From an uncultured Bacteroidota bacterium (GTDB lineage Bacteria; Bacteroidota; Bacteroidia; 2-12-FULL-35-15), in NCBI GenBank assembly GCA_903926385.1, contig CAIYIS010000010.1, positions 7,060-71,059 of the forward strand: DNA of 64,000 nt. Direction: 5' to 3'. The position numbers were made by a program, and so were the translations under genes. The stretch's first letter is position 1, and every line of letters starts with the position of its first letter. The notes under the pieces were generated by a model. The model was not told where the DNA came from and ran no database searches. It worked only from the letters and a program-made list of their open reading frames with translations. Below are positions 26,306 to 56,185 of the stretch, in pieces.

Positions 26306-26310
26306 TTTAT

Positions 26311-26712: not shown

Positions 26713-26757
26713 TTTAAATTAGTGATTTCGTTAATTACGTATTGTTCAATAACTGGT

Positions 26758-27480: not shown

Positions 27481-27628
27481 ATTGTTTGTTTTTTAGTTTG
27501 ATTAATAAAATAATTAATGAACGCTAAATTAATTGTAAGCAGAAGGCAAATGGTTTTGATGTTGTATAACTTATAAACACTCCATTGTTTATTAGCCTCG
27601 TGCTTTCGTTTCTATTCTTATTTCCTTC

Positions 27629-40595: not shown

Positions 40596-40661
40596 ATATT
40601 TCACAGGCCTTTCTTATTTTTTAAAGTATTAATAATTGAACTAATTAATTACCTTTACACC

Positions 40662-41030
40662 GCAAGCCGTTCTATCGCTGCCTTTCTGATTACTGAAAGG
40701 GAGAGGAAAGTCCGGGCAACACAGAGCATCCCACTTCCTAACAGGAAGGATTCGTAGCAATATGAAGACAGCAAGTGCCACAGAAAATTACAGCTTTGCA
40801 GTAATGCGGAGTGATGGTGAAAATGTGAGGTAAGAGCTCACGGAAATGATTGGTGACAATTGTTTCGGGTAAACCTTGGGAGTTGAAAGACCAAATAAAC
40901 CGAAGCTTAAGAGCTGCTCGCTCAATTTCGGAGGGTAGGTTGCTTGAGTTGATTGGTGACAGTTAACCTAGATAAATGATGGAAACCTTTATGCTTGCAT
41001 AAAGGCACAGAACCCGGCTTACAGGCTTGC
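40662..41030 (+). ncRNA. rnpB: RNase P RNA, bacterial type A
   Basis: Universal blocks GAGGAAAGTCCGGGC (about 40700) and ACAGAACCCGGCTTA (about 41007). P1 pairing GCAAGCC (40662-40668) with GGCTTGC (41024-41030). T-run after the 3' end. Confidence 0.9.
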
Positions 41031-41034
41031 TTTT

Positions 41035-41976
41035 TTAGTTTTTCTTTCCGAGAAAATTAATCAGTATTTTGTTAAACAACTTAGGGTTTTCGAGTGCAGG
41101 CATGTGTGCGCAGTTGGGCATAACTTCCAGTCTGGCTGTTGTTCCGATATGCTGTTGCAATTCTTTTCCGATGTGCAATGGAATTAATTTATCGGCTTCT
41201 CCCCAAACCAATAATACCGGAATGTGGAAGAAATAATTTTGATTGGCATAAAGGTCTCTTGTGCTGTTTAGGGATTTTAGTAGTTCTTTCTTATCCTCAA
41301 CTTGCAAATTATACATGCTGTAAAACATTTCCTTTAAAATAAAGTTGGGTACAAATGGAGGTTTATGATAAGCTACCGCTAACAGTTTTTTTAATCCTTT
41401 ATATTGATTTGGTATTAACAGTTCCTCTAGTGAACTAACGTTGAATTCGCTTTTAGCTATTGTCTCATCTTTGTCAGAAAAATATTTTACGGGACTATCA
41501 ACAAGAACCAGTTTTTCTAATCTTCCTGAGTTTTGTAAGCCTAACTCGGCTGCAACAAGTCCTCCGTAAGAAACACCGCAAGCATTGAATTTATCAACAT
41601 GAAGCGTATCGAGTAATAATTGTAACGCTTCTACCTGATTCTTTATGGCATATACTTTAGGATTTGAATTGCTTTTGCCAAAGTAAAGAAGGTTAGGAAG
41701 AATCAAACGATAATTTACTGACAATTCCTGCACTTGTTGATACCATTGAAATTCTGTACTTGCCCCAAAGCCATGAATCAGTATTAGTACAGGTTTATTT
41801 TCCTCCGAATCCCAATAGTTAATTTTATAACCCGCTAGTTCAATTTCCTTTTGCTTTAATCCACTTTTAGAGAATTGACGAAAAATATATTTATTTAAGC
41901 TTTTTGGCACACTGCATGAATTAAACAAAATAAGAATTAAAAAAAGAATGAAAGTTGCTTTAATGTAGTTATACAC
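41035..41976 (-). CDS. Alpha/beta hydrolase
   Basis: Signal/anchor N-terminus, HGFGAS oxyanion region, nucleophile elbow GVSYGG, C-terminal CAHMP (catalytic His). Confidence 0.8.
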   Translation of the reverse strand: MYNYIKATFILFLILILFNSCSVPKSLNKYIFRQFSKSGLKQKEIELAGYKINYWDSEENKPVLILIHGFGASTEFQWYQQVQELSVNYRLILPNLLYFGKSNSNPKVYAIKNQVEALQLLLDTLHVDKFNACGVSYGGLVAAELGLQNSGRLEKLVLVDSPVKYFSDKDETIAKSEFNVSSLEELLIPNQYKGLKKLLAVAYHKPPFVPNFILKEMFYSMYNLQVEDKKELLKSLNSTRDLYANQNYFFHIPVLLVWGEADKLIPLHIGKELQQHIGTTARLEVMPNCAHMPALENPKLFNKILINFLGKKN

Positions 41977-42174: not shown

Positions 42175-42864
42175 TTATTTAATTAGGTTGGCTACCTGCT
42201 TTTCGTAGCTTCTTCCTATAGGTATTTCCTTATCTTGTAGGTGAATTATTTTATTACGCACATTCTCTATACGCGCAATAGGCACAATAAACGACCGGTG
42301 AACACGAATGAAGTTTTTTTGTGATAATTTATCTTCCATTGCTTTCATCGTAATCCGTGTTGTAACTCGTTTCTGACTCACCAAATAAATATGAATGTAA
42401 TCAGCCAGTGATTCGATATACAAAATGTCAGCTAAGGCGATTTTGACAAGGCTGTAATCTACGCGAACATAAATATATTGTTGGTCCTTCAAATCTTTAT
42501 TGCTCTGATAATAATAGTAATCTCTTGCTTTGTTTACCGCTACTTCGAATCTTTCGTATGTAAACGGTTTAACAATAAAATCAACAGCACTCAAATCAAA
42601 ACCATCAAGTGCATACTTGCTATGAGCTGTAATAAAAATAACCATCGAATTTTGCTCAATGGCTTTGTAAAGTTCAATCCCTGTTATTCCAGGCATGTCT
42701 ATATCTAAAAAGAGCAGGTCTACCGGAAACTTAAGAAGATGTTTTGCTGCATCGTCTGGTTTTGTAAATGTTTTTTCCAGTTGAATAAATTCAACTCGTT
42801 TGCAAAAGTGTTCAATCACTTTCAACGCCATTGGGTCGTCATCTATTGCAATTGCTTTAATCAT
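42175..42864 (-). CDS. LytTR-family response regulator (second copy, operon-terminal)
   Basis: Receiver (IAIDDD...LFLDIDMPGITG) plus a LytTR output domain (ILYIESLADYIHIYL...FIRVHRSFIV). Its start overlaps the upstream stop by 4 nt. Confidence 0.9.
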   Translation of the reverse strand: MIKAIAIDDDPMALKVIEHFCKRVEFIQLEKTFTKPDDAAKHLLKFPVDLLFLDIDMPGITGIELYKAIEQNSMVIFITAHSKYALDGFDLSAVDFIVKPFTYERFEVAVNKARDYYYYQSNKDLKDQQYIYVRVDYSLVKIALADILYIESLADYIHIYLVSQKRVTTRITMKAMEDKLSQKNFIRVHRSFIVPIARIENVRNKIIHLQDKEIPIGRSYEKQVANLIK

Positions 42865-44267
42865 GGTGTTATGGCTATGCCAATTAAAAATAAGTTATTT
42901 GTAAAAGTAAAATCACTGTATCGGGAACCTCTGTTTTCTAAACCATAGTTAATATAAACCCCCAGTTTATTATTAAAGTGATAATTTGCCCCAAGAGAAA
43001 ATTTGTCCTTTATAAAGAAGGGAGTATTGTTTACATAATATCCAGCATACTCCACCACATTTCCTTTAGTATTGTGCAGATAGTCGGCAGTAATACTTAA
43101 TTTTTTTAAAGGAACAAATGAAAGGTAAGGAGAATAAGATATAGAATTTGTTGCACCGAATGACTGAGCCCAATGTAAATATCCAATACAACCAATATTA
43201 AAAAAGTTATTTGCGAATGGATGATATTCTAATGAAGCACTAAATTGATATTCATTATGCCCTTTATTCAAATTAGCCAGTGCTCCTGCAGAACAGTCTA
43301 TGTAAATAAATGATTTTTTTAATGAGGAGGAAACAATGAAACTCGATACAGCAGGAATTGAATTCGAATTGCCCGGAACATTTTTAGTTACTTGATGAGC
43401 ATAAATTGTGTCAGGAGGAGGCACTACAGGAGGAGGCCCAAGTGTAGTTGGTTGAATATAATTAATTGTATAATCATCTGTTTTTAAATAATCCTTTTCA
43501 TAAATCCACTGTCCGCTCATTGAAAAGAGGAAATTGTTCTTTAAAGGAATGTTGGCTTTTAAATAATAATGATATTGCTTTATTGTGATGGAGCTTTTTA
43601 CAGTATCAGTTAACTTGATAATGCTGTCAGGCAAAGGTGCTCCAGGATATGCGGGAAGCAAATGAACCGTTTCATCGTTATGAACTTCGGTATTTCCGAA
43701 TTCATTTTGACTATTATAACTAAACGAATGAAATAAGGAGACACGATTTTTTGCATAATGCATTAGTCCAACCTCAAAGTAATTAGCAGTACTTATACTA
43801 TCATGATTGCTGCTAAGTTTTACAGCCCCTTCAATATTTGCATAGGTTAATTTCGGTGAGTTACTTGTACCTATCTTTTTCGCCAAGGTTTCTCTAAACG
43901 ATTTGCTTAACCACCTAGCTTCTTCATATTTTTCATCAAAGATCAAACAGTAATACAAGTAACTTGTAGCATCTTCATCACCTTCGTTATAGAGAAGAGC
44001 TTTCTTAAAATGTAATTCCGCTTTGCGGTATTTTTCCATTTCATAATTAGCTATACCCGCCCTCATACGAATAAAATAATAGTCAAAGCCCTTATCTATG
44101 ACTATATCGGTGTAACGAACAAGTTCTTTCCAGTTCTTGTTATTGTACAATTTCAACGATACAGATTCCACCTGAGCGGTTGTCAGGGTATCGTTAGGTT
44201 TTGCCTTAATTTCGGCTGCTATTAAAAACAAAACAAATACTATCCAATATTTACCGCCTCTATGCAT
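42861..44267 (-). CDS. Secreted TPR-like / beta-strand-rich protein (possible outer-membrane barrel), function unknown
   Basis: Signal peptide (YWIVFVLFLIAAEIKA), ~130-aa TPR-like helical region, internal PPPVVPPPD, then alternating-hydrophobicity strands to the C-terminus. Confidence 0.5.
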   Translation of the reverse strand: MHRGGKYWIVFVLFLIAAEIKAKPNDTLTTAQVESVSLKLYNNKNWKELVRYTDIVIDKGFDYYFIRMRAGIANYEMEKYRKAELHFKKALLYNEGDEDATSYLYYCLIFDEKYEEARWLSKSFRETLAKKIGTSNSPKLTYANIEGAVKLSSNHDSISTANYFEVGLMHYAKNRVSLFHSFSYNSQNEFGNTEVHNDETVHLLPAYPGAPLPDSIIKLTDTVKSSITIKQYHYYLKANIPLKNNFLFSMSGQWIYEKDYLKTDDYTINYIQPTTLGPPPVVPPPDTIYAHQVTKNVPGNSNSIPAVSSFIVSSSLKKSFIYIDCSAGALANLNKGHNEYQFSASLEYHPFANNFFNIGCIGYLHWAQSFGATNSISYSPYLSFVPLKKLSITADYLHNTKGNVVEYAGYYVNNTPFFIKDKFSLGANYHFNNKLGVYINYGLENRGSRYSDFTFTNNLFLIGIAITP

Positions 44268-46423
44268 TTATCTTTTTCTTTAATTGTAAATTTAATTATT
44301 TTGTTATTGGCTAATTCTATCTCAAAAAGGATTTCTTTTTTGCGCCCACCCATCAATTGGGTATTCACTTCCGAGTTTATTATAATTTCATTTGGTGCCT
44401 GTGTTTCGTCAGCGTGTTTGTAAATTGCTTTATAATTTGCTTTCAGAAATATATAAAACGGGGCTACAAAATCCTGTATAATTTTTAATGCGTTGTTGCC
44501 ATAGGTTTCTACAGGAAGATTTTCTTCGAGTTTCAATTCGGGGAAATAACTTAACAATATTTTATTCGCTCCAAGATAGAAGTAGTAAAGCAGGGAGTCC
44601 TTTGTGCCGACATAACTTGTAAAGTAAAACAGAGTATCATTATTGGTAAAATAAGCAATCGCCTTAGTTTTGTTACAGTATAAATAAGAGTTGTTATATG
44701 AGTCTGTACAAACCAGCCAGCTTTCTGTACTTTTATTATTTCCGTTTTTTACTTCAAATTTTAATTCCATTCCGGGAATAAAATGGAATGCTTGTTTTAT
44801 CAATGGAGAAACAGAAGGACGGAAAATAGTTTCCTTTTCGTTTGGTAATTCAAACGAATGTAACAAATACCCCTCTTTTTCTTTTGTTACATAATAACTC
44901 AACGGGTATTTTAAAGTTTTAGAGCCAATCTCTTTTGTTTCCTGTAATTGAAAATGAATGTGAGGTTCGGGAGAACGACCGGAACTGCCGCACATGGCTA
45001 TCACATCACCTTTGTTCACATAATCTCCAATTTGCACCTTAAAACTATCTTTTTTGATATGACTTATTTTACTGAATAAATATTCTGAGTGTTTTATGAC
45101 AATGGTATTCCCCCAATTTTCATTTAAGTTTACATCACCTATGGTATTATCTTCGACACCATCAACCAACGCAACAACAGTTCCATGTGCCGGTGCTAAA
45201 ACAGGTAATCCGTAACAATAAAAATCGGTTAGATCATCACCCGGCAAGCGGAATGTTCTTTTGTGTTCATCTGTCACAACAAAATCCCAGGCAAATCTGA
45301 AATCATTTTTGTGAGTAATCTTTCCGTCATGAGCTTGCGAAACGTGCCATTCTCCATAAAAAGGAAGGTGAATGTTTACCAACGTGTGCTTTTTGAAACG
45401 CTCTAAATGAAAATCGAAACCGTACAGATTTTTCTCCGGTGAAAACAATTGGTATTTTACAACATAAAAATATTTGATGATATACCTGTTATTAAGTGTA
45501 ATCAATACGATGAGCACAAAAAAACTGAATGGAAGCGAGTACAAAGGCAAATGATAAGGTTCAATTATTTTTGCAAATGCAGTAATAATGAATGCCTGAA
45601 TGGGAGTTGAAAAAATTACAAGTAGGTAAGTTGCAGCAGAAGGAATAAGAAAAAAACCTCCAATAGCAATTGCTGTAAGTATATAATTAATTGCAATAGC
45701 GTTGTAGCCAGATTCAATTGAGTTGTGTTGAAAAATGAAATAGAAAACATATCCGGAAAGAAATCCAATGAAGGACAAAGTAAATGCTATGCGAGAATAA
45801 ATCAGCAAGCCAACTGTTATCAATATGCCGGAAAAAATATTGTGTTGAAAAAAGATTGCTCCCATTGATTTGAAATAAGAAACAAACAATGGAGTTAAAG
45901 CAAAAGAATCTAACAACTTGCGGAGGCTCACAAATGAGATAGAGAAAAGTCCGAATAAATCACCCGAGCAACAACCGGCAGGTGTATTCAAGTCTAAATT
46001 TGTAAATGATTTTATTCCAAACAGAATAATCCATATCGAAAAAATATATGGCAAGCTTAGCATCGGCAGGCTGTATCGACTGAAATAGGAAAATAACCAA
46101 ACACTCATTAACAATGTAATGACCGTAGCCACAAAAAGCAAAAGCAAAAAGGGCAATGAGATTTGGCAAAAGGCGCCCAGCGTTAATCCTGTGAGTAAAA
46201 CATTAAAAGAATAGGAACCAGCTTTTGTAAACGCAGGATTAAATCCAAGCAGAGAAGAAAGCATTAGTGAAAATACAACGCACACTAATCCGGATATTCC
46301 CGCATTCAGATTCACAAAGGAGGAAACTATCAACAGTATACCAAACCATCGGTAATCTGAAAAGAACACCTGACTGTAACTGTTGATAATTCCTTCTTTT
46401 ATATTTTTGAAATATTGACTCAC
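44240..46423 (-). CDS. Urea-transporter-like membrane domain fused to an M23 (LytM) metallopeptidase domain plus a ~230-aa unknown C-terminal domain
   Basis: N-terminal ~330 aa polytopic, beginning GIINSYSQVFFS (urea-transporter family opening motif). Central GDVIAMCGSSGRSPEPHIHFQLQ matches the M23 signature GSTGRSTGPHLHFE. I recognise nothing in the C-terminal region. Confidence 0.7.
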   Translation of the reverse strand: MSQYFKNIKEGIINSYSQVFFSDYRWFGILLIVSSFVNLNAGISGLVCVVFSLMLSSLLGFNPAFTKAGSYSFNVLLTGLTLGAFCQISLPFLLLLFVATVITLLMSVWLFSYFSRYSLPMLSLPYIFSIWIILFGIKSFTNLDLNTPAGCCSGDLFGLFSISFVSLRKLLDSFALTPLFVSYFKSMGAIFFQHNIFSGILITVGLLIYSRIAFTLSFIGFLSGYVFYFIFQHNSIESGYNAIAINYILTAIAIGGFFLIPSAATYLLVIFSTPIQAFIITAFAKIIEPYHLPLYSLPFSFFVLIVLITLNNRYIIKYFYVVKYQLFSPEKNLYGFDFHLERFKKHTLVNIHLPFYGEWHVSQAHDGKITHKNDFRFAWDFVVTDEHKRTFRLPGDDLTDFYCYGLPVLAPAHGTVVALVDGVEDNTIGDVNLNENWGNTIVIKHSEYLFSKISHIKKDSFKVQIGDYVNKGDVIAMCGSSGRSPEPHIHFQLQETKEIGSKTLKYPLSYYVTKEKEGYLLHSFELPNEKETIFRPSVSPLIKQAFHFIPGMELKFEVKNGNNKSTESWLVCTDSYNNSYLYCNKTKAIAYFTNNDTLFYFTSYVGTKDSLLYYFYLGANKILLSYFPELKLEENLPVETYGNNALKIIQDFVAPFYIFLKANYKAIYKHADETQAPNEIIINSEVNTQLMGGRKKEILFEIELANNKIIKFTIKEKDKCIEAVNIG

Positions 46424-46433
46424 AAAAACGTTA

Positions 46434-47798
46434 TTACAATTTAAATGTTTTTAAATATTTTGGCATTACCTCATCGCTCTGAATACTATTAAGTGTTTCG
46501 CGATTTCTGATCAGATGCGCTGTTTCGTTTGTGTCTATTAAAACAATAGCAGGCCGCAGCGCTATAAATTGCATCCATTGAGTCATATTGTAGGCGCCAA
46601 CTGAATGTACCACGACATTATCATTTCGCATTAACGGAGGCAAGGTAATATTTTCCCGTATAACATCTATGTTCATGCACAGAGGGCCATATAAAACCGA
46701 GTCTTCGGTATGCTGTCCGAATTCCTGAGCCGGGGAAATTTTGTGGTCGTACCAAAATGAGGTGAATAGTATGTTTACACCAAAATCCATAATTGTTGCC
46801 CGTCTTCCATCAGCCAACCTCTTGTTCGAAATCACACTTCCCAGCAAATATCCTGCATCATCGATTAAAGCTCTTCCTGTTTCGAGTATTAATAAAGGCA
46901 ATTCAGTTTCCGTAAAACCGGCATTTAATATCGAAGTTGTAATTGCTTCGGCAAATTGATCAAAGGTTGGAGAAGTATCTACACCTTGCAGGTACGAACC
47001 TTTGAGCGTATTTTTAGAAGCAAATCCTCCTCCCATATCAATGTACTGAATATTTTTTTTGAACTTCTTTTTTACGGCCATAGCCAAATCAGAGAGTTTG
47101 GCTGCGGCAATTCCATAAGCACTTGGAGCCAGCATAAATGTACCGATGTGAGAATGCAACCCAACTAAATCCATTTTATCATTGAGCATAATTTTATTAA
47201 TCGCATCCCAAGCTTGTCCATTCTCATAGTTAAACCCAAATCTGTCCCACATAGGATAAATACCTGTATCCATGTTTACACGAATAGCTACACGTGGACG
47301 TTTTTTTGAATTGTTTGCAATTTCCATTATCATATACAACTCATCCAGATGGTCGATGTGCAAAAGCGAATCATTTTTAATGGCTAATGTTAAATCCTCT
47401 TCTGATTTGTCGGGGCCGTTGAAAATTATTTTGCTTCCCGGCACTCCATTCTGCAAAGCTTTGTGGTATTCAAATCCGGAAACCACTTCGGCCCAGGAAC
47501 CCAATTGATGAAATACATTACACACTGCATTCATATAATTGGTTTTGTATGACCACGCGAACTGCACCTTTGGATAACGATTCTTAAATGCTCTGTTAGC
47601 ACTTTGGTATGTATCACGAATGGTTTGTTCTGAAATCACGAACAGCGGAGAACCATATTTAGCTAACAATTCCTTTACTGAATTACCATCAATATGTGTT
47701 ACAGGTTTGTATTCTGTTTTGGTTCCGAATTTATTCATTACCCCTGTATTCAATCTTTGAATAATAGGTCTTTCGTATTGCAATTTTTTTGTTGACAT
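46434..47798 (-). CDS. PLP-dependent decarboxylase, Orn/DAP/Arg decarboxylase family 2 (alanine-racemase fold)
   Basis: FAWSYKTNY (PLP-Lys position), DMGGGFAS (GGGF phosphate loop), ETGRAL (EPGR-equivalent), YGPLCMNID (active-site Cys). 454 aa. Confidence 0.8.
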   Translation of the reverse strand: MSTKKLQYERPIIQRLNTGVMNKFGTKTEYKPVTHIDGNSVKELLAKYGSPLFVISEQTIRDTYQSANRAFKNRYPKVQFAWSYKTNYMNAVCNVFHQLGSWAEVVSGFEYHKALQNGVPGSKIIFNGPDKSEEDLTLAIKNDSLLHIDHLDELYMIMEIANNSKKRPRVAIRVNMDTGIYPMWDRFGFNYENGQAWDAINKIMLNDKMDLVGLHSHIGTFMLAPSAYGIAAAKLSDLAMAVKKKFKKNIQYIDMGGGFASKNTLKGSYLQGVDTSPTFDQFAEAITTSILNAGFTETELPLLILETGRALIDDAGYLLGSVISNKRLADGRRATIMDFGVNILFTSFWYDHKISPAQEFGQHTEDSVLYGPLCMNIDVIRENITLPPLMRNDNVVVHSVGAYNMTQWMQFIALRPAIVLIDTNETAHLIRNRETLNSIQSDEVMPKYLKTFKL

Positions 47799-47814
47799 TG
47801 TTTTTAGTTTTTAA

Positions 47815-48864
47815 TTATAATTCCCCTAGGGTTGATATTGTTTCAAATTCTTTTAAAGATACTATCATATCGTACGAATAGCGAATAAACATCTTTCCGA
47901 TATCGTATTTTTTAAATGGTTTTACAGGTTTGCCCAAAGCCAGCTGAACCAAAGCATCCGGATGGTTTTGCCCGCAACCAACTGCCAAATATACCCAAGC
48001 AGGAAAGCGGGGATTTATTTCCAAAAGATAGTAGTCGCCTTTAACTGTTTTTATAATTTCCAGCTCCATACCACCCTTCCATTTAGTAGATTTAATAAGC
48101 TGTTTGGTCATAGCCATCAAGTTTTCATCTTCAATCGAAATTCCTGACCATGCTTTTCCTTTATCCGTTATATATTGTTTACGCATCGGTACAGCACCTA
48201 TCGTGTTTCCTTTTCCATCACCCAATGCAGTAACATTTACTTCCTGTCCCGTAACAAATTCCTGAATGATGATGGGTAATCCCCATTTCGCACTGATCTT
48301 ATTGAAATAAGTATGTGCCTGTTCCTGGTTATATGCAATGTATGCGTCATAAAATTTACCTTTCACCACCATTGGATAAGTGAACTCACTAACAAGAGAA
48401 GGAATAGATGCTGCGCTGAATATAACCTTCCCGTATGGAACTTTTATCTTATGCTTCTTACCATAAGCAGAAAGATTGGCTTTATGCCTGTCTTCAAACT
48501 GAGCAAGAGTAGGTACAAAAACGTTAATGTTCAATTCCTTTTTTAATTTGTCCGAAAGCGTAATAAAATTAAATAATTCAGCATCGAAGTTCGGAATGAT
48601 AACATCAATTTTTTCCACGGAATGAATATACTGCAAACGTTCCATGAGACTTGCTTTACCGGCAGAAGGCAATGGAATCTGATAGGTTTTATCCACCAGT
48701 TCGTGCATGTAAATTCCGGGCTCCAATGCTTCGTATGATAATCCGACAATGCGGACATCAAACACTTTGCTTTCTTTCAACGCCCTGATAACAGGTATTC
48801 CCGGCCCTGGGCTGTCTATATTGTTAAGCCCGGTAACAGCCACATTAATTTTTTTCTTTCTCAT
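47815..48864 (-). CDS. ATP-grasp ligase (carboxylate-amine/peptide ligase type)
   Basis: MVVKGKF...IIQEFVTGQEVNV...YLLEINPRFPAWV follows the ATP-grasp K...E...E-x-N-P-R layout. Its start overlaps the PqqD-like gene by 20 nt. Confidence 0.75.
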   Translation of the reverse strand: MRKKKINVAVTGLNNIDSPGPGIPVIRALKESKVFDVRIVGLSYEALEPGIYMHELVDKTYQIPLPSAGKASLMERLQYIHSVEKIDVIIPNFDAELFNFITLSDKLKKELNINVFVPTLAQFEDRHKANLSAYGKKHKIKVPYGKVIFSAASIPSLVSEFTYPMVVKGKFYDAYIAYNQEQAHTYFNKISAKWGLPIIIQEFVTGQEVNVTALGDGKGNTIGAVPMRKQYITDKGKAWSGISIEDENLMAMTKQLIKSTKWKGGMELEIIKTVKGDYYLLEINPRFPAWVYLAVGCGQNHPDALVQLALGKPVKPFKKYDIGKMFIRYSYDMIVSLKEFETISTLGEL

Positions 48865-49105
48865 AGCTTTCTGTCAAATTATGTTTATCTAACATGTTAA
48901 TGAAATCATAACTGTCTTTTTCAAATGTGGCTCCATCTACGTTATACTTTTTAGTTATCGCAGATTTTATCTCCCCTCTGCTCTTACCTTCTTTGAGCAT
49001 AGTAATAATTTCCAATCCTATCGGATTAGTAGTAAATGAATCTCCTGTAGAAGGATCGAAGACAAATCCTGATTCGCTAAGAGCGATGTTCTTTTTAATT
49101 TTCAT
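48845..49105 (-). CDS. PqqD-family small protein (RiPP-recognition-element-like)
   Basis: 86 aa. FTTNPIGLEIITMLKEGKSRGEIKSAITKKYNVDGATFEKDSYDFINMLDKHNL follows the PqqD winged-helix pattern (ligand-strand, helix, 'eI...l...y.v......D...Fi..L...'). Confidence 0.6.
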   Translation of the reverse strand: MKIKKNIALSESGFVFDPSTGDSFTTNPIGLEIITMLKEGKSRGEIKSAITKKYNVDGATFEKDSYDFINMLDKHNLTESYEKEKN

Positions 49106-49113
49106 AATTTTAG

Positions 49114-51348
49114 TTATTTACTGTTTTTACTATTCACATGTTTGGCCAACACAATTTCAAGTTCTTTTATTGCTTTTTCGCAAACACTTTTTATTTGCAC
49201 AAAATCTTTATCTATAAGGTTCATGGCGGCTTTTGTTTCCGAAAGCGTTTCCATATTCGCTAATGGTTTTAGTAAGGGTCTTAGTCCCATAAACCCTACT
49301 GATGTTTTCATACGATGAGCAATAGATTTTACAAGTTCATGGTCGTTATTCTTTATTGCTGTTTCGATAGCACTAATATCAACAGGAGTTTGTTCCAGAA
49401 AAAGCTCTATCATTTCGATAATAAATTCATTGCTGCCCTTGGCCATCTCATATAATTCGCCCATGTTTACAATTACATCATTTTCTCCAAACAATTTCTG
49501 AGGCTTGGTTTCCTTATCCTTTGAACCTTCAGTAATCGAAATGTTCATTACATACTTACTTATCAGATTATATAATTCAAGTTCCGTGAAAGGTTTTGAA
49601 ATGTAATCGTTCATTCCGTATTGCAAACATTTTTCTTTTTCACCGGGCATAATATGGGCTGTCATGGCTATGATGGGTATAGTTAATCCGAGTTCATTGC
49701 GGATAATTTTCGAAGCGGAATATCCATCCATTTTTGGCATCTGCATATCCATTAAAATTAAATGGTAACTATTTTGCTTTAGTTTTTCTATCGCCACAGC
49801 TCCGTTTTCTGCTATATCTATCTTTAACCCGAATCCTTTTAAAATTTCTGAAGCCAGTTTCTGATTCATCAAATTATCCTCTACCAGCAATATTGATATT
49901 TTGTTGTTTTGTGTCCCAAAGGTTTCTATAACATTATTTTCCTTTTTTTCTGTTACAATTTCATTGCTCACAGGATAGTTCATGATCACGGTAAATTCAG
50001 AACCTTGGCCTTCTTTACTTTTTAAAGTTATTTCTCCATGCTGAATTTCAATTAAATTTTTTACGATGGACAATCCCAATCCTGTACCGCCAAATTTTCT
50101 TGTTGTTTCGGAATTGCCCTGATTAAATCGTTCAAATACTTCAGCGATTTTTTCGGACGGAATTCCAATCCCTGTGTCTGTAATTCTGAAAATTATTTTC
50201 GCCTCATTACGTTCTATACTTTTCAATTCGCATTTAACAGTCACCTTGCCATTATTTGTAAATTTAATTGCATTGTTTGTTAAGTTTACCAAAATTTGTG
50301 TTAATCGGGTAGGGTCACCGTATACGCTTTTCGGTATCCTATCATCAATCACTATTTCAAAATCGATATTCGCTTCTTTAGCTTTTTCTGTAAACATAAG
50401 TTTTAGAGAACTTACTGAATCAGCAATACTAAATGGAATTTTTTCAAGCCTCACCATTCCTGCTTCTATCTTGGAGAAATCAAGAATGTCATTTATTAGG
50501 GAAAGCAAATTAGTGCCACTGCTTTTAATGGCTGCCAAGTATTCTGTTTGTGCTTCATCCAACTTTGTTTTTTGCATTAATCCAGAGAAACCAAGAATGG
50601 AATTCATAGGTGTGCGTATCTCGTGACTCATGTTTGCCATAAACTGTTCTTTAAGCATTGCGTTTTCGTCTGCTTTATGTTTAGCCGTGCGTAATTCTAT
50701 TTCCAGTCTGTTTCGAACATTAATATCTCTGAACAAAATAATAATCATAGCCAGGAAGGCGAGAATACCTACCACTATTTCACCGTAACTCCATCGCTGC
50801 GAAACTTGCAAAAGCTTGTTGCTTTTCTTAATAAGAGATACAGAAGCAAGACTCAAATTATTATTTATCTCCACCAGCACTTTATTTATATCACTAACTA
50901 TTTCGGAGCCTTCTTTGGAACCAGTAGCACTTTCATTTAGCCCGGGAATATTTACCTTATGCGACAAATCTTTCCCTTCCATTAATTTTTTATAAGTCAA
51001 ATCTTTTAGTTTGGTAAACAAACTTGACTCTTTATTTCCGTTTAAATATTGGCCGAGCGTATCTAACTCAGAAGTTATCTGAGTTTGCTTCTGAATGTAC
51101 TCTCCAAGGATTTTTGCATCACCTGTTATACTGTAGCCACGCTGATAAATTCCGAGTGTGTCAATATTGTTACGAAACAATTTCATCGACTCGGATATTT
51201 TATAGGAAGCATAGAGCTTTTTATTGTTTTCAGACAATTGGTTGATGTATCCGTTGGCATTATACGCTATAAACAATATCAAACAAAAGCTGATGATAAA
51301 GCTGGTGATGATTATTAGTTTGGTATAACTTTTTAGTCCGAATTTCAT
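49114..51348 (-). CDS. Hybrid sensor histidine kinase (CHASE3-like sensor, HisKA, HATPase, receiver, HPt)
   Basis: TM plus a CHASE3-like N-terminal region and a second TM. H-box SHEIRTPMNSILG. DTGIGI and GGTGLGLSIV. Receiver ILLVEDN...LILMDMQMPKMDG. C-terminal HPt HRMKTSVGFMG. Confidence 0.85.
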   Translation of the reverse strand: MKFGLKSYTKLIIITSFIISFCLILFIAYNANGYINQLSENNKKLYASYKISESMKLFRNNIDTLGIYQRGYSITGDAKILGEYIQKQTQITSELDTLGQYLNGNKESSLFTKLKDLTYKKLMEGKDLSHKVNIPGLNESATGSKEGSEIVSDINKVLVEINNNLSLASVSLIKKSNKLLQVSQRWSYGEIVVGILAFLAMIIILFRDINVRNRLEIELRTAKHKADENAMLKEQFMANMSHEIRTPMNSILGFSGLMQKTKLDEAQTEYLAAIKSSGTNLLSLINDILDFSKIEAGMVRLEKIPFSIADSVSSLKLMFTEKAKEANIDFEIVIDDRIPKSVYGDPTRLTQILVNLTNNAIKFTNNGKVTVKCELKSIERNEAKIIFRITDTGIGIPSEKIAEVFERFNQGNSETTRKFGGTGLGLSIVKNLIEIQHGEITLKSKEGQGSEFTVIMNYPVSNEIVTEKKENNVIETFGTQNNKISILLVEDNLMNQKLASEILKGFGLKIDIAENGAVAIEKLKQNSYHLILMDMQMPKMDGYSASKIIRNELGLTIPIIAMTAHIMPGEKEKCLQYGMNDYISKPFTELELYNLISKYVMNISITEGSKDKETKPQKLFGENDVIVNMGELYEMAKGSNEFIIEMIELFLEQTPVDISAIETAIKNNDHELVKSIAHRMKTSVGFMGLRPLLKPLANMETLSETKAAMNLIDKDFVQIKSVCEKAIKELEIVLAKHVNSKNSK

Positions 51349-51384
51349 TGTTGTTTACTTTGCTTATTTATTTCAACTCACCAA

Positions 51385-51771
51385 TCAGTTCTGTCTATTT
51401 GGTTTTTTAGAGTTCATAATATGTTCTAAGACTCCCGTCAAATATGACATTTCAAATGGTTTATGAATAAAGTAATTAAATTTTATTCCGCTTCTTTTCA
51501 TTAACTCATTCCCTTCATCCAACGAAGAGATAACAATAACTGATGGCATCCATTTAGAATAATAGTTTTTAAGGTGATCTATAAATTCCGAACCTGAAAT
51601 ACCCGGCATCATCATGTCGCAGATAATTACATCCACATCTCTTTCCAATTGAAGAAACTTTTGAGCCTGCTCTCCGCTCATTGCTGAGTAAACAGTATGT
51701 CCTTCTTCTGTTAAGTTATGATTTATTACTTTGTGAATAATCATATCATCGTCTATCAATAGTATTTTCAT
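51385..51771 (-). CDS. Stand-alone receiver (CheY-like) response regulator
   Basis: 128 aa. ILLIDDD...VIICDMMMPGISG...HKPF. No output domain. Confidence 0.85.
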   Translation of the reverse strand: MKILLIDDDMIIHKVINHNLTEEGHTVYSAMSGEQAQKFLQLERDVDVIICDMMMPGISGSEFIDHLKNYYSKWMPSVIVISSLDEGNELMKRSGIKFNYFIHKPFEMSYLTGVLEHIMNSKKPNRQN

Positions 51772-51850
51772 ATTCTCCGGTTGTTAATATTGGTTTTGTT
51801 TGGTGATGTAAAAGTAGAGTAAATACAAACTGCCTTGACAAGATTTTCGG

Positions 51851-51880
51851 TAAACAGGAAAATATAATGGCTAAACAGGA
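51851..51880 (-). promoter_or_regulatory. Putative LytTR-regulator binding site: perfect 9-bp direct repeat with a 12-bp spacer
   Basis: TAACAGGA-type repeat TAAACAGGA at 51851-51859 and again at 51872-51880 (start-to-start 21 bp). It lies in the 143-bp gap between the LytTR gene stop (51915) and the receiver gene start (51771), 80-109 bp upstream of that start on the minus strand (where it reads TCCTGTTTA). Confidence 0.5.
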
Positions 51881-51914
51881 GAAAGAAAAAGGTAGTGAAT
51901 GATTACCTTATTGA

Positions 51915-52604
51915 TTACAATAAATTCAAACGTTTCAGCAGGGTTGGTTTTTGTGTATCGCCAATAGGAATGGGCTGTTTGGAGACGTACACAGTATTTT
52001 CTTCAACGGTATCCACTTTATCGAGGGGTAAGATGTAAGAGCGGTGGACACGAAAAAACTTGGAAGCCGGCAGCTCTCTTTCCAGTGCGCTTAGGGTATA
52101 GTGTATGGTATGTTTTTTGTCGGGAGTAAAAATAGTAACATAATCGCCCAAGGCCTGAATATAGAGTATATCCGCGATAAGCAACTTGGTCATGATTCCT
52201 TTTTCGCGAATAAAGAAATATTCTTTATCGAGCTGTAAGGGTTTGTTACTACTTTCAAATATTTCTTTTGCTCTTAAAACCGACTTCAGGAATCGCTCTT
52301 CCTTAACCGGTTTTACAAGAAAATCGACCACATTGACCTCGAATGCTTCCACAGCATAATTGGCGTTGGCAGTAATGAGAATAACCAATGGCTGATGAAC
52401 AATCGTTTTAAGAAACTCGATACCATTCATGTGGGGCATTTCCACATCGAGGAGGAGCAGGTCTATTTTTTCTTTATTTAAAATATCGGTGGCCTCTATT
52501 ACATTTTCGCAATCGCCTGCAAGGTGAAGAAATTCGATGTCGCGCACAAAATGCTTGAGCACTGTGCGCGCCATTTTATTATCATCAACTATTAAACATC
52601 TCAT
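51915..52604 (-). CDS. LytTR-family response regulator (first copy)
   Basis: Receiver (LIVDDN...LLLDVEMPHMNG) plus a LytTR domain (ILYIQALGDYVTIF...FFRVHRSYILP). Confidence 0.9.
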   Translation of the reverse strand: MRCLIVDDNKMARTVLKHFVRDIEFLHLAGDCENVIEATDILNKEKIDLLLLDVEMPHMNGIEFLKTIVHQPLVILITANANYAVEAFEVNVVDFLVKPVKEERFLKSVLRAKEIFESSNKPLQLDKEYFFIREKGIMTKLLIADILYIQALGDYVTIFTPDKKHTIHYTLSALERELPASKFFRVHRSYILPLDKVDTVEENTVYVSKQPIPIGDTQKPTLLKRLNLL

Positions 52605-52610
52605 AAATAC

Positions 52611-53216
52611 TTACTGCACTTTTTTGATGGCAGATTTGGCATCTTCGGATTGAGGATTATATTCCAAGGCCTTTGTGAAATATTTTTTGGCTTCGGGTTT
52701 CTTTCCTTGGTCGAGTTGAATTTTTCCGGCTAGCATGTTACTATCGAAATCGAAGGGATACGTTTTAATTACTTTGGAAACAAATGCCATTGCATTCACG
52801 TAATCTTTTTTGGAATAATATATATACCCTACACGGTAATTGGCGATAGAATTATTTGGGTCGAGTTTTAGAATGTCCATGTATATGTTTAAAACATTGG
52901 TCATATTGCCTAATGCAACAAGAGGAAGTATTTGGCCAAAACGAGCTTCGATGGATGAAGGCTCGGCTTCTAGTGCTTTTTTATAATACATATCAGATTT
53001 TACATAATCCTTGCTTAAATATTGCAACCAGCCCAAACGAAGATTTATTTCGTAGGAATCTTGTTTTAATGCCACCAAAGCTTCGATGGCTTTTGCATAC
53101 TGTGTATCGTATTCGAAGGAATAACTTTTGGAAAATGCTGTTTCGGCATTATCTTGTGCTCTGACTCCGCCACAAATTAGTGCAATGACGAAGATTAACG
53201 TGATCTTTACTTTCAT
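52611..53216 (-). CDS. Secreted TPR repeat protein
   Basis: Signal peptide followed by 4-5 TPR units (YYKKALEAEPSSIEARFG, YMDILKLDPNNSIANYRVG, FTKALEYNPQSEDA). It ends 6 nt before the LytTR gene start. A minus-strand TAATTTTG -7 box lies at 53252-53259. Confidence 0.8.
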   Translation of the reverse strand: MKVKITLIFVIALICGGVRAQDNAETAFSKSYSFEYDTQYAKAIEALVALKQDSYEINLRLGWLQYLSKDYVKSDMYYKKALEAEPSSIEARFGQILPLVALGNMTNVLNIYMDILKLDPNNSIANYRVGYIYYSKKDYVNAMAFVSKVIKTYPFDFDSNMLAGKIQLDQGKKPEAKKYFTKALEYNPQSEDAKSAIKKVQ

Positions 53217-53385: not shown

Positions 53386-53943
53386 TTAATAAACAAATGG
53401 GATTAACCGGTAAGTATTTTGGCAATATGTTTGGTATTCCTTGCCAAACTGCTCGTTCAGCACTTTTTCTTCAATGCGAATGCGATAAAGAAGTGCAGCC
53501 AAAACAAGAAAAACGACTACCATAGCACTCAGATAATTGTTTAGAGAAATACCGAAACCAGCAAATGAGAGAAGCATTCCAGTGTACGAAGGATGACGAA
53601 GGAGGCTGTATAAACCATCTTTTTTTATGCGATGATTGTGCCGAATGGTTACATCAACTGTAAACATTTTACCTAGCTGCCAAACTGCTGTAAAACGAAT
53701 GATCATTCCGAGTAAAATGATGGTCATGCCGGTGTAATACATGAGGAAGGAGGGTAATATATCTAACGATGTGTATAGTGCACAACTTATGCCTGCAGCA
53801 ATAGCTGCTGTGCTTGTTATCCATCCGGTTAGCATAGAGCCATTGTCTTTTTTTTGAAGGTCTTTTGCGCCCGAACGTGTGAAACTGTTGAGCATAATTT
53901 CGGACAAAAGCCATATCAGATATATCAGATTTAAATTTATCAT
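53386..53943 (-). CDS. Isoprenylcysteine carboxyl methyltransferase (ICMT/PEMT) family membrane methyltransferase
   Basis: Multi-TM protein. GLYSLLRHPSYTGMLL and RIRIEEKVL are the ICMT-family motifs. Confidence 0.75.
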   Translation of the reverse strand: MINLNLIYLIWLLSEIMLNSFTRSGAKDLQKKDNGSMLTGWITSTAAIAAGISCALYTSLDILPSFLMYYTGMTIILLGMIIRFTAVWQLGKMFTVDVTIRHNHRIKKDGLYSLLRHPSYTGMLLSFAGFGISLNNYLSAMVVVFLVLAALLYRIRIEEKVLNEQFGKEYQTYCQNTYRLIPFVY

Positions 53944-54088: not shown

Positions 54089-56185
54089 CTAATGTATCAC
54101 CACCAGTTTCTCAGTTCTTACAACTGCATTTTTATCGGCTATTTTACAGAAGTATATTCCATTTTTTAGTGCTGAAATGTTGATGATATTTCCTCCATTG
54201 TTTGCTTTTTCCTGCATCAGTATCTTTCCGGTGATGTCGGTAATGGTAATAATATCAGGCATTTTGTATCCATGCGCAAATTGAATTTTTACAGTTTCAT
54301 TAGCAGGATTTGGGTACATAGAGATAAAATAATTCTCTTCTGTTTTTACGTTTACGGTAACCACAGGGGGGGACGGACAATTTGGATTACCGGGAATATT
54401 AGCATCCAACCAAGCAAGTCTTCTCGAAATCCAGTCTTTGAATGCCTGCACTTCTCCCAGATAAGTACCCGGATCTGGCTCAATTTCGGGAGTTCCATTA
54501 TTATAACCTAGTGTAGCCCATTTCTGGAAATGCCTTGCCTGAGAGGCATTAAGGTAAACTGTCATAGAATCGATATAGCCGTACAAAGCCGAATCGCTGA
54601 GAATTGTGGTTCGGAAATTATCCCAGCGGCATCTGAAATTATTTTGAAAAGTCGTGTCGTCCATCATGCGCACCATCCAACCGGTCGAGTTGTTGTCGGG
54701 GCCACAATCGTTCACTTTATAACTCCATCCCGAACCATCGGTGGCAGCAAAAATAGAACATTCGTTAATGTCTTTCCATGCCCAGTCGAAATCCCATACA
54801 GGGCCTGCCTTTAAAGGTGAGATGTATCCTGTGCTGTCTTTTCCTTTATGATAAAACTGACTCTTTTTAAATCCGTCACCGTTACGCGAAAGTTCGTTTA
54901 CAATAAGGTAGTCAATAAAGGAATTCATGCCTATATATTTTCTGTAGCCTGTTGCCGAGTCCTGAAAATTGGGGCCATACAAGGCTGTTTCAAAATCGTT
55001 GATGAAGGCTTGAATGTATGTTTTTTGAGTGTCGGTTATGTTTAGCACTTTCGGATATTCATATAGCAGGTGAGTATTAAAAGTGGGATGATCTATGGGA
55101 TGATACTGCAGCTGCCAGCCATCTGTACCTCCTCCCCACAAGTTGTTTTGAAGTATATAGCCTCCGGTAACATTTAAACCTGTGTTTTCTGTACTGTCCA
55201 AATTAGCAATGGACACACGGTTACTATCGCGTTTTATTTTTTCGCTCAACACGTATATACCTTCATAAGTCCCGTTTAGCAATACTTCTACAAGGCGAGT
55301 ACGTGGTGCATAATGGCCCATTTTGCGCGACAAATGGTAAGCGAGTGTGTTTCGAATAAATACTTTGTCGTTCCAGTTCGAAATCAAACACCAGTCGTGT
55401 TCTGCAGGCATCGAAAGTATCGATGCGTCAGCCTGTACATTACTAGTATCGCGAGTTTCGAAACCATATGGAACCTGAGGATACCAAGATGATGATGCTC
55501 CACGAATTTCAATTCCTATTTTTCCGTTGTAATCATTTATTGAATCTGTTGGGTGGTTCATCATTCCCGGACCATTATAAATAATGCCCATGGTTCCGTC
55601 TATTTTTGGATTGTTAGGAATCGCCACTCCGTTCGTATTTATGATAACGATAGGTAAATTCGTTGCCGAGAAATTAATGTAACCAGCCGGAGTGTTACTG
55701 AACGTAAGACTCCAGGAAACAACATTTCCGATCAATCCGGTGGTTTGGTCGCGAACCATCAGATTCCAAACATTGTTAGGATTCTGATTATTATTAAAAC
55801 TGGCAATTGTATTTTCGGGTTTGTAAATTCCTGTAAAAGGAGCCACTCCTGATGTAACGGGAACTGTGGATGTGTCGTGAAATATGGTGTTGGTATAATT
55901 GGCTCCTGTGCCCCCGTTAAAGGTAGAGAGAAAATATATAGAACCATCTGGCGCTTGTAATTTAATACGAAGCTGATTGTCGGATGGGTGATTAATATTT
56001 ATAGTAACATACTCCAGTCCGAACGATACGGCATCAATGCTGCTCGGCAACCCCGAAACGGTGATGGGATAATAACAATATTGGTTGTTGTCTGTAATGG
56101 CACCTCCGGCAGTGTTGGTAAAGGTTTGAGCACTTATTGCAAAAGCAAAAAGAATGAAACTAATCAGTAGTAAATGTTTTTTCAT
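54089..56185 (-). CDS. CotH-family protein with N-terminal P-domain-like module and T9SS C-terminal domain
   Basis: Signal peptide. ITININHPSDNQLRIKLQAPDGS (proprotein-convertase P-domain-like). Central CotH-like region (LLNGTYEGIYVLSEKIKRDSNRV...). C-terminal MYPNPANETVKIQF...GIYFCKIADKNAVVRTEKLVVIH. Confidence 0.7.
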   Translation of the reverse strand: MKKHLLLISFILFAFAISAQTFTNTAGGAITDNNQYCYYPITVSGLPSSIDAVSFGLEYVTININHPSDNQLRIKLQAPDGSIYFLSTFNGGTGANYTNTIFHDTSTVPVTSGVAPFTGIYKPENTIASFNNNQNPNNVWNLMVRDQTTGLIGNVVSWSLTFSNTPAGYINFSATNLPIVIINTNGVAIPNNPKIDGTMGIIYNGPGMMNHPTDSINDYNGKIGIEIRGASSSWYPQVPYGFETRDTSNVQADASILSMPAEHDWCLISNWNDKVFIRNTLAYHLSRKMGHYAPRTRLVEVLLNGTYEGIYVLSEKIKRDSNRVSIANLDSTENTGLNVTGGYILQNNLWGGGTDGWQLQYHPIDHPTFNTHLLYEYPKVLNITDTQKTYIQAFINDFETALYGPNFQDSATGYRKYIGMNSFIDYLIVNELSRNGDGFKKSQFYHKGKDSTGYISPLKAGPVWDFDWAWKDINECSIFAATDGSGWSYKVNDCGPDNNSTGWMVRMMDDTTFQNNFRCRWDNFRTTILSDSALYGYIDSMTVYLNASQARHFQKWATLGYNNGTPEIEPDPGTYLGEVQAFKDWISRRLAWLDANIPGNPNCPSPPVVTVNVKTEENYFISMYPNPANETVKIQFAHGYKMPDIITITDITGKILMQEKANNGGNIINISALKNGIYFCKIADKNAVVRTEKLVVIH

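Follow-up and report, generated by a model that had tools for sequence, protein, structure and literature searches.

Within one clade of pyridoxal phosphate (PLP)-dependent decarboxylases, the characterized members other than diaminopimelate decarboxylase (DAPDC), namely FigC, SbnH, AcsE, MccE, and BtrK, are known to decarboxylate amino acids that have already been conjugated through their side chain by a preceding enzyme (PMC7857480). Here we describe a cassette of six genes that contains a decarboxylase of this clade, found in a 64,000-nucleotide stretch of DNA from an uncultured Bacteroidota bacterium (contig CAIYIS010000010.1, positions 7,060 to 71,059 of the forward strand; hereafter the window). 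The cassette also encodes a PqqD-family protein, an ATP-grasp ligase, a urea transporter (UT) domain fused to an M23 peptidase domain (UT-M23), a 468-aa protein predicted to form an outer-membrane barrel, and a periplasmic tetratricopeptide repeat (TPR) protein. Our analysis showed that this six-gene cassette of the Bacteroidota is real and widely conserved, and no description of the combination was found in the literature searched.

Parts of the cassette recall known systems. The butirosin proteins BtrI, BtrJ, and BtrK likewise bring together a protein of about 86-87 aa, an ATP-grasp enzyme, and a clade-2 decarboxylase that acts after tethering (PMC7857480). However, as a phosphopantetheinyl acyl carrier protein, BtrI differs from the 86-aa cassette protein, which has the fold of PqqD and of the recognition element (RRE) of peptides that are made by the ribosome and modified after translation (RiPPs), with no match to acyl carrier proteins; the cassette also lacks aminoglycoside genes and adds the UT-M23, barrel, and TPR proteins. 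The enzyme pairs of pathways for siderophores made independently of nonribosomal peptide synthetases (NIS pathways; FigA/FigC, equivalent to FslA/FslC, as well as SbnE-F/SbnH and AcsD/AcsE) conjugate a side chain and then decarboxylate, and FigC shares with the cassette decarboxylase a Cys-Met loop and a specificity helix with threonine and aromatic residues, but the cassette ligase is an ATP-grasp enzyme rather than an NIS synthetase, and TonB receptor and siderophore genes are lacking. The same logic of ligation followed by decarboxylation, which we propose for the cassette, is used by MccE. RRE-dependent RiPP systems, such as the lasso-peptide B1/PqqD proteins and the graspetides, have a stand-alone or fused PqqD domain beside the modifying enzyme, and an ATP-grasp enzyme and a peptidase in one operon. 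In contrast to them, no precursor gene was found for the cassette and its ATP-grasp resembles carbamoyl-phosphate synthetase (CPS) rather than MvdC/MvdD, and to our knowledge neither a PLP decarboxylase nor a urea-type channel is a RiPP component.

The membrane components have their own parallels. In exporters of the PCAT type, a C39 hydrolase is fused on the cytoplasmic side to the exit protein, as may be the case for UT-M23, but the cassette has a passive UT of 10 transmembrane (TM) helices rather than an ABC pump, M23 rather than C39, and, in relatives, SIR2 or GNAT domains instead. The BcsC, PgaA, PelB, and AlgK/AlgE exporters combine periplasmic TPRs with an outer-membrane barrel, as does the 468-aa protein in its predicted architecture of TPRs and a barrel of about 16 strands, and a separate TPR partner is present in the cassette; however, the 468-aa protein is much smaller with few TPR-like helices, and no glycosyltransferase or polymer synthase is encoded. 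Finally, the UT domain has the fold of the urea transporters dvUT and Yut as well as their Q...Q and LPxx(T/S)LPF pore motifs, but differs from them in carrying a cytoplasmic extension of about 400 residues and in having serines in place of both pore threonines. The cassette is therefore a member of none of these systems, and by its components we regard it as an RRE-assisted biosynthetic cluster of the ligase/decarboxylase type.

An original prediction for the window, made from the sequence alone, had described ten closely packed minus-strand genes with particular gaps and overlaps, and the coordinates of the open reading frames (ORFs) bear this out in full. The features of the locus are as follows, all on the minus strand:

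52611-53216, minus strand: gene for the periplasmic TPR protein, 201 aa (Pfam TPR_2, TPR_8, and TPR_1 above cutoff; signal peptide)
51915-52604, minus strand: gene for the response regulator LytTR1 (Pfam Response_reg, 79 bits, and LytTR, 65 bits)
51851-51880, minus strand: candidate LytTR-type operator (TCCTGTTTA-N12-TCCTGTTTA, exact)
51385-51771, minus strand: gene for a stand-alone receiver protein, 128 aa (Pfam Response_reg, 68 bits)
49114-51348, minus strand: gene for a hybrid sensor histidine kinase (Pfam HisKA, HATPase, REC, and Hpt)
48845-49105, minus strand: gene for the PqqD-family protein, 86 aa (Pfam PqqD, 37.2 bits against a cutoff of 23.4)
47815-48864, minus strand: gene for the ATP-grasp ligase, 349 aa (Pfam PF15632 and PF02655)
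46434-47798, minus strand: gene for the PLP decarboxylase, 454 aa (Pfam Orn/DAP decarboxylase N and C domains)
44240-46423, minus strand: gene for the UT-M23 fusion, 727 aa (Pfam UT, 167.8 bits, and M23, 55 bits)
42861-44267, minus strand: gene for a protein with TPR and a predicted outer-membrane beta-barrel, 468 aa (AlphaFold fold; no Pfam match)
42175-42864, minus strand: gene for the response regulator LytTR2 (Pfam LytTR, 71 bits, and Response_reg, 70 bits)

The gaps are 6 nt (TPR/LytTR1), 143 nt (LytTR1/receiver, 51772-51914), 36 nt (receiver/kinase), 8 nt (kinase/PqqD), 16 nt (ATP-grasp/decarboxylase), and 10 nt (decarboxylase/UT-M23), and there are overlaps of 20 nt (PqqD/ATP-grasp), 28 nt (UT-M23/468-aa gene), and 4 nt (468-aa gene/LytTR2). 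Independent gene calls on public metagenome contigs that encode an identical UT-M23 agreed with the window in genes and overlaps over the part from the kinase to LytTR2 (complete on L082 and L083), the receiver, LytTR1, and TPR genes lying beyond the fetched flanks. The predicted domains were likewise all recovered by Pfam above the gathering score, with the 468-aa protein alone lacking a Pfam match. Consensus promoter and terminator scans of the window were uninformative, and the transcription units are likely TPR-LytTR1 and receiver through LytTR2.

To examine conservation, the ATP-grasp protein was used to scan one genome per species across 185,579 species, and relatives are encoded in at least 576 of them. 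There are thousands of close homologs, the best 120 of which are 71-99% identical. We fetched the best 80 related loci, giving 81 with the window. These are nearly all from metagenome-assembled genomes of Bacteroidota (a few have implausible bin labels), spanning the Flavobacteriales, Chitinophagales, Cytophagales, Sphingobacteriales, and Bacteroidales together with Ignavibacteria, and their ATP-grasp homologs are 64-90% identical to that of the window. Conservation was assessed by tblastn with the window proteins and by all-against-all clustering of the locus ORFs, and both approaches agree. The order PqqD, ATP-grasp, decarboxylase, UT-M23, 468-aa protein, and TPR protein is kept, with orientation, in 49 of the 53 loci that have enough flanking sequence. 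Median gaps between core genes are 36, 19, and -16 nt across loci, and a PqqD homolog is present in 78 of the 80 loci, mostly at an offset of -241 from the ATP-grasp start. This adjacency is far beyond chance and is not specific to one genome, so the functional module proposed by the original prediction stands. It had matched the gene combination to no named system, and in our searches no curated family, solved structure, or paper accounted for the gene set. It had named placement in a known pathway by HMM or structure search and a lack of co-conservation as findings that would speak against a module; both were looked for, and the module withstood each.

The extent of the conserved unit is smaller than ten genes. 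Because the core recurs and the regulators vary by lineage, the unit consists of a core of six genes and a set of regulators that depends on the lineage. The TPR gene is a member of the conserved core: homologs occur in 57 loci at a median offset of +5940 from the ATP-grasp start, and the gene is usually found 3' of the 468-aa gene, while in the window it is at the 5' end of the operon. One locus (L081) has copies at both ends of the cassette. In three Bacteroidota loci only the PqqD, ligase, and decarboxylase trio is found, with a major facilitator superfamily (MFS) gene near two of the three, as would be expected if transport were provided by a replaceable module of the UT, barrel, and TPR genes. 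Beside one trio-only locus, an MFS transporter fused to a spermine/spermidine-synthase-like domain is encoded divergently (L045:7268-9568, minus strand), which may hint at an amine- or polyamine-type product.

No extra conserved enzymes were found in the flanks, where a Pfam search of 135 upstream neighbors returned only regulators as recurrent genes, and neither urease nor amidase genes were found in any locus. The flanking genes of the window (ICMT-like, CotH/T9SS, alpha/beta hydrolase, Smr, and Omp85) are not conserved with the cassette. NCBIfam gave no match at cutoff for any of the ten proteins, the anti-phage defense models of PADLOC gave none for the six core proteins, and a literature search linking UT, PqqD, ATP-grasp, M23, and DAP decarboxylase found nothing relevant.

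The decarboxylase is a PLP enzyme of the alanine-racemase fold in the DAPDC/FigC/BtrK clade, with the N-citrylornithine decarboxylase FigC/FslC (7kh2) as its closest solved structure (1e-55), followed by archaeal DAPDC and BtrK (~4e-22). It has the residues of an active enzyme, as the PLP lysine (K85), the stacking histidine (H217), the glycine-rich phosphate loop (G256-G258, D-M-G-G-G-F), R309, and the catalytic cysteine (C374) are invariant in 73-74 of 74 sequences. In DAPDC and ornithine decarboxylase, an acidic residue after the catalytic cysteine binds the distal amine of the substrate. The corresponding motif of the cassette enzyme, ‘GPLCMNID’, is invariant and has Met375 after the cysteine, as does FigC, with glutamate there in the 1twi DAPDC alignment. 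The specificity helix has T346, W349, and Y350, compared to T327, T330, and Y331 in FigC and R343 in DAPDC. The citrate-binding residues of FigC, R387 and N389, correspond to Q407 and M409, both of which are conserved in the family. With sub-cutoff scores to both LysA (TIGR01048, 216 bits against 297.9) and FslC/FigC (NF041039, 225 bits against 500), no acidic residue next to the cysteine, no helix arginine, and R387/N389 replaced, the enzyme is neither a LysA nor an FslC, and its pocket is neutral and aromatic.

The ATP-grasp ligase has an invariant Mg/ATP motif (E282-x-N284-x-R286). Its best Pfam model is ATPgrasp_Ter, while the ‘carbamoyl phosphate synthase-like’ models of NCBIfam are far below cutoff. 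The best solved structure is a protein of uncharacterized function (2pn1, 1e-9), with CPS next. Searches against the MvdC/MvdD-type models of graspetides and microviridins gave no match, with only CPS-like, ATPgrasp_Ter, and ATP-grasp_3 models found in NCBIfam and Pfam. We also considered a PylC-like N-epsilon-lysine ligase, based only on weak Pfam PylC-like_N matches in tandem relatives, but this idea was dropped as PylC is not listed among the solved structures even at E=10. As their catalytic residues are invariant, the ATP-grasp, the decarboxylase, and the M23 domain all look active.

The PqqD protein has by Pfam the canonical RRE fold, as is found in RiPP clusters. A strand region near its N-terminus is almost invariant (‘NIA(L/I)S(D/E)SGFVF(D/N)PSTGDSF(S/T)TNPIG’), and its C-terminal tail is acidic and variable. 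The nearest NCBIfam models are chaperones of lasso peptides and other peptides, all below cutoff. A role as a covalent carrier like LysW or BtrI was considered and rejected, as the last residues of the acidic tail are not conserved. The original prediction had suggested a scan for RiPP-type short ORFs, and neither the window nor the 80 related loci yielded a gene for a precursor peptide. No conserved short ORF of at least 12 aa is present in the 500 nt 5' of PqqD, nor any in the enlarged intergenic gaps of the loci; in the unmasked regions of the 81 loci, read on both strands for ORFs of 15-100 aa, the only recurrent ORFs are PqqD itself and pieces of upstream regulators; and the three intergenic regions of the window, read in all frames down to 7 aa, contain nothing plausible. 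In the window, PqqD starts 8 nt past the kinase stop, and therefore there is no room for an adjoining precursor. Scaffold peptides of 21-22 aa in other RRE systems have been missed by routine ORF calls (preprint, PMC13622209), so a very short or distant precursor gene remains conceivable here as well.

The architecture of the UT-M23 protein is shared by 120 of the 120 best homologs, although the databases label them simply as ‘urea transporter’. Its AlphaFold model (36 homologs, pLDDT 84) has a 10-helix urea-transporter fold at residues 12-312, a linker helix, the M23 domain at ~358-534, and a beta-rich C-terminal domain at ~540-727 with no relative in Pfam or among PDB sequences. The UT domain superimposes on dvUT (3me1) with a target-normalized TM-score of 0.85. 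When compared to the pore-lining motif of UTs (PMC11589576), both the fold and the pore are retained: Q18-V19-F and Q193 are kept, and the threonines of the LPxxTLPF motifs are conservatively replaced by Ser123, which is invariant, and Ser296. It falls short of the urea-transporter equivalog (TIGR03441, 110 bits against 274.6), and no urease context is present in the loci. In the M23 domain, H455 and H488-x-H490 are invariant and aligned to the catalytic residues of solved M23 enzymes.

The termini of UT proteins are intracellular. The AlphaFold model places no TM helix beyond residue 312, and lysine and arginine are abundant in the linker. In addition, the place of M23 is taken in relatives by SIR2 and GNAT domains, and because SIR2 requires NAD and GNAT requires acyl-CoA, the fused C-terminal extension is expected to face the cytoplasm. 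The original prediction had a membrane-embedded M23 peptidase; the M23 domain, attached to a 10-TM UT fold, is predicted to be cytoplasmic and not an extracytoplasmic wall hydrolase.

The 468-aa protein, which had been described as a secreted TPR/beta protein, is predicted to be an outer-membrane barrel with a short periplasmic TPR domain. In its AlphaFold model (pLDDT 81), a signal helix and TPR-like helices at residues 30-132 are followed by a barrel of about 16 strands; a profile search found one TPR unit (residues 66-100), and the family consensus ends in an aromatic W-x-F. The best folds in the PDB are those of BcsC (9b8a, 9b8h, and 6tzk), followed by OmpG, FadL, TodX, and porins. By this model it resembles exporters of the BcsC/PgaA type, which have TPRs and a 16-18-strand barrel, at a sequence identity to BcsC of about 10% and with no demonstrable homology.

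For a view of the wider family, 1.84 billion cluster representatives were scanned in full with HMMER, with the ATP-grasp protein as query. This returned 219 proteins below 1e-30, and those of unusual length were then examined with Pfam. We found a fusion of PqqD and ATP-grasp (P0347, 477 aa), a fusion of ATP-grasp and decarboxylase (P0307, 871 aa), and tandem double ATP-grasp proteins of ~715 aa (P0270, P0287, P0293, and about 20 others). As these fusions join them, PqqD, ligase, and decarboxylase appear to act as one unit. The fusion contexts are not from close relatives of the window, because they are mostly in high-GC DNA (65-70% for L085-L089; 57% for L090). In L085 the order is a large TPR protein, the PqqD-ATP-grasp fusion, a 290-aa protein, the decarboxylase, and a UT fused to SIR2 and GNAT (L085:7233-9344); the 290-aa protein has no Pfam match, and by reading its translation, its N-terminus resembles that of the ATP-grasp. 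In L089 a protein with a signal peptide and TPR, the N-terminus of which aligns to the 468-aa family, is followed by PqqD, a tandem ATP-grasp, the decarboxylase, and a UT fused to SIR2 alone (L089:11544-13217). Both UT+SIR2 fusions lie in DNA of ~70% GC, and from these two contexts the enzyme-tailed UT channel is a recurrent partner of the PqqD/ligase/decarboxylase unit. Both loci adjoin genes for an ArsR-type HTH protein and a glyoxalase-fold protein, with a methyltransferase and an SBF-family transporter also present in L089, and they may come from related organisms and hence represent a single observation. At least one tandem ATP-grasp is thus found in a PqqD/decarboxylase/UT-SIR2 context (L089), and another locus has two separate ATP-grasp genes, which suggests two ligation steps in these variants. 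In L086-L088, PqqD and the ATP-grasp-decarboxylase fusion are followed by a 637-aa protein, which we considered as UT-like and rejected, as it has no UT similarity.

Compared to the core, the regulators are restricted in their distribution. The original prediction had treated the two-component and LytTR genes as a bracket belonging to the unit, but the kinase, receiver, and LytTR genes are confined to a sub-clade (the window, L001, L002, L014, L027, L033, L049, and L081). A full-length tblastn match to LytTR1 at the equivalent upstream position (60-75% identity) is found only in L001, L002, and L014; receiver homologs were found by tblastn in L001, L002, L033, and L049, with a 171-aa Response_reg gene at the same position in L081; and LytTR2 is at the same downstream position in L001, L002, L014, L016, L027, L033, L049, and L081. 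The kinase has two TM segments around a CHASE3-like sensor (below cutoff in the window, 23.9 against 28 bits, and significant in relatives), then HisKA, HATPase, REC, and Hpt. In other lineages the upstream regulators include AraC-type proteins (one ORF cluster, 21 loci), LytTR proteins with or without a LytS-type kinase, or ECF sigma factors with a CpxP/LTXXQ-type periplasmic protein. The commonest of these is the AraC-type protein of ~200 aa (L003:9000-9644 and 20 other loci), in which Pfam detects the HTH part only; by reading, its N-terminal ~90 residues resemble a heavy-metal-associated (HMA) domain, with a single cysteine in the motif ‘NMVGxSC’.

The direct repeat noted in the 143-nt gap by the original prediction is exact, with a period of 21 bp. 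The pair TCCTGTTTA-N12-TCCTGTTTA is unique in the window and lies ~80 nt upstream of the receiver gene, and the 9-mer itself occurs 5 times in the window against an expected 0.65. The three further copies are outside the cassette (7385-7393, minus strand; 12241-12249, plus strand; 57570-57578, plus strand), and none is paired at 21-bp spacing. A 9+12+9 direct repeat is the classical geometry of LytTR operators, such as those of AgrA, ComE, and PlnC, and at the sequence level the locus has what defines a LytTR operon, namely LytTR regulators and paired 9-bp repeats with a 12-bp spacer. The exact pattern is absent from the 80 loci, but L001 and L002 have a degenerate (T/G)CCT(G/T)TT(T/C)A twice with a 21-bp period at the same site upstream of the receiver, followed by a conserved ‘TCTACTTTTACATCA’. 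This conservation is a phylogenetic footprint, and the repeat is a candidate operator. Self-regulation, as originally suggested, is plausible given that a LytTR-type repeat is kept in the nearest relatives. Taken as a whole, the original interpretation is partly supported, as a functional module with plausible self-regulation, and it is not supported in its ten-gene extent or in its analogy to peptide loci.

From what the analysis showed, namely which genes make up the cassette, how far they are conserved and fused, how they fold, and which catalytic residues they keep, we infer an order of reactions, a direction of transport, a role for the M23 domain, and a type of product, and we tentatively favor the resulting pathway while holding it as somewhat short of an even chance. 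The PqqD protein, translationally coupled to the ATP-grasp, would present a peptide or protein-borne group, and the ATP-grasp would make an amide bond between this group and an amino acid via the side chain of the latter. The clade-2 decarboxylase would then strip the alpha-carboxylate from the conjugated amino acid. At the cytoplasmic face of the UT channel, the attached M23 domain would cut the product or trim the carrier at the channel mouth, so that a small, neutral, amide-type product could pass the inner membrane by way of the UT pore and then be carried across the outer membrane by the periplasmic TPR protein together with the TPR/barrel protein. In the lineage of the window, the cassette would be under the control of a phosphorelay of the CHASE3-type hybrid kinase, the receiver, and two LytTR regulators.

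Several points weigh against this pathway. No substrate peptide gene for the PqqD protein was found in the window or the 80 related loci, and since the ATP-grasp has no characterized close relative, the substrates that we propose are guesses. The canonical N-terminal HxxxD zinc motif of M23 could not be placed in the alignments, with the invariant H371...D380 or C403 as candidates to replace it, and the cytoplasmic topology is predicted from a monomer model and homology. UT pores exclude charged solutes and lack the width to pass peptides, which restricts the products that could be exported, and the outward direction of transport is presumed. A dedicated outer-membrane barrel would be odd for a small neutral molecule, and enzymes conserved this highly in sequence are not typical of antibiotic-type clusters.

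The canonical RRE fold of the PqqD protein, with its highly conserved strand region and its nearest NCBIfam models among peptide chaperones (below cutoff), could also be read as a sign of a classical RiPP system with an unlinked precursor, in which PqqD binds the precursor, the ATP-grasp and decarboxylase modify it, M23 removes the leader, the UT is a trimeric anchor, and the barrel and TPR proteins serve for export. A membrane-fused peptidase recalls peptidase-containing exporters, a dedicated outer-membrane barrel fits a peptide better than a small molecule, and precursors of 21-22 aa have been missed elsewhere (PMC13622209). We nevertheless consider this unlikely: no conserved short ORF was found in the loci, upstream of PqqD, or in the gaps of the window, and with no precursor gene the classical RiPP explanation lacks its defining element; the ATP-grasp is outside the graspetide and microviridin families; the pore lining is conserved, which speaks for a channel that works and not for an anchor only; and M23 is swapped in relatives for SIR2 or GNAT, which are not leader peptidases. 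Another possibility is that the enzymes act on meso-diaminopimelate (meso-DAP) stem peptides or peptidoglycan precursors, with the TPR/barrel proteins and envelope-stress-type regulators tying the module to the status of the outer membrane. All three enzyme families have paradigms in this pathway, namely D-Ala-D-Ala ligase (with Ddl-like chemistry supposed for the ATP-grasp), LysA at the free D-center of meso-DAP, and the M23 endopeptidases, and the upstream regulators of other lineages include ECF sigma factors with a CpxP/LTXXQ-type protein and LytS/LytTR pairs. However, the decarboxylase lacks the distal-group binders of DAPDC and scores below the LysA cutoff, the M23 domain is predicted to be cytoplasmic and away from the sacculus, neither the PqqD protein nor the urea-type channel would have a role, and the cassette is patchy across the species scanned, all of which makes this explanation improbable.

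The direction of transport could also be reversed, with the barrel, TPR, and UT proteins importing urea or a urea-like amide that the cytoplasmic enzymes convert or incorporate. UT proteins are passive channels that usually serve in uptake and the pore motif is conserved, the uptake channels FadL, TodX, and OmpG are among the folds that the barrel matches, and the ATP-grasp is nearest to CPS-type domains. Against this, an ATP-consuming ligase, a PLP decarboxylase, and a PqqD protein follow a biosynthetic rather than a catabolic logic, urease and amidase genes are missing from every locus, the trio occurs without a UT in three loci, and the urea-transporter equivalog score is not reached, so that we regard uptake as quite improbable. 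Least credible to us is a quorum-sensing or bacteriocin-type peptide locus under LytTR control, analogous to Agr, Com, Blp, or Pln, as the original prediction had suggested. The two LytTR regulators and the classical 9+12+9 repeat would fit such a locus, but LytTR genes accompany the core in the sub-clade only, with AraC or ECF regulators elsewhere, and the analogy therefore carries little weight. Moreover, the kinase is a CHASE3-type hybrid and not an HPK10 peptide receptor, and there is neither a peptide gene nor an ABC/C39 exporter.

It is intriguing to consider a broader version of the export pathway that we favor, in which the cassette represents a new, cross-phylum class of envelope-spanning, export-coupled biosynthetic machine, with an RRE-guided ligase/decarboxylase that assembles an amide product and a channel-fused hydrolase (M23, or SIR2 with or without GNAT) that frees it where the channel opens. 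We hold this to be doubtful, but if it is true, this would be the first UT-family channel recruited as a dedicated conduit for a natural product. In the boldest form of this idea, the product could be a thin, side-chain-free polyamide, for example of iteratively ligated and decarboxylated Glu or Asp, threaded through the UT slot and the BcsC-like barrel, and the M23 domain, of the type that cleaves glycyl bonds, could be the chain cutter.

Apart from the cassette, the window has other features. An ICMT/PEMT-family membrane methyltransferase gene (53386-53943, minus strand) lies directly upstream of the TPR gene but is not conserved beside the cassette, with weak matches on the opposite strand in L023 and L030. 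Further upstream lies the gene for a secreted CotH-like kinase of 698 aa (54089-56185, minus strand), also not conserved with the cassette, in which a CotH kinase domain is combined with a proprotein-convertase P-domain and a C-terminal sorting domain for type IX secretion. A full-length class A RNase P RNA is found at 40659-41037 on the plus strand (253.9 bits), and its 3' end overlaps by 3 nt the GTG start of a convergent alpha/beta-hydrolase ORF (41035-41976, minus strand), which is 291 or 313 aa in public gene calls and may have its true start further in. The only tRNA of the window is a tRNA-Arg (CCT) at 20359-20431 (plus strand), and the region 24001-28000 has a G+C content of 0.40-0.43, compared to ~0.35 elsewhere in the window, with negative AT skew.

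The components of the cassette are familiar, while their combination has not been described. A cytoplasmic M23 domain and UT channels fused to enzymes are unusual in themselves. If confirmed, the joining of RRE-guided modification with ligate-then-decarboxylate assembly would be new, and a urea-type channel with a cytoplasmic hydrolase would be a transport solution new to biosynthetic pathways. Solving the cassette would give a function to thousands of proteins that are now labeled ‘urea transporter’, ‘carbamoyl-phosphate synthase large subunit’, or ‘diaminopimelate decarboxylase’, and it could reveal a new class of secreted metabolite or a new envelope component in environmental Bacteroidota.

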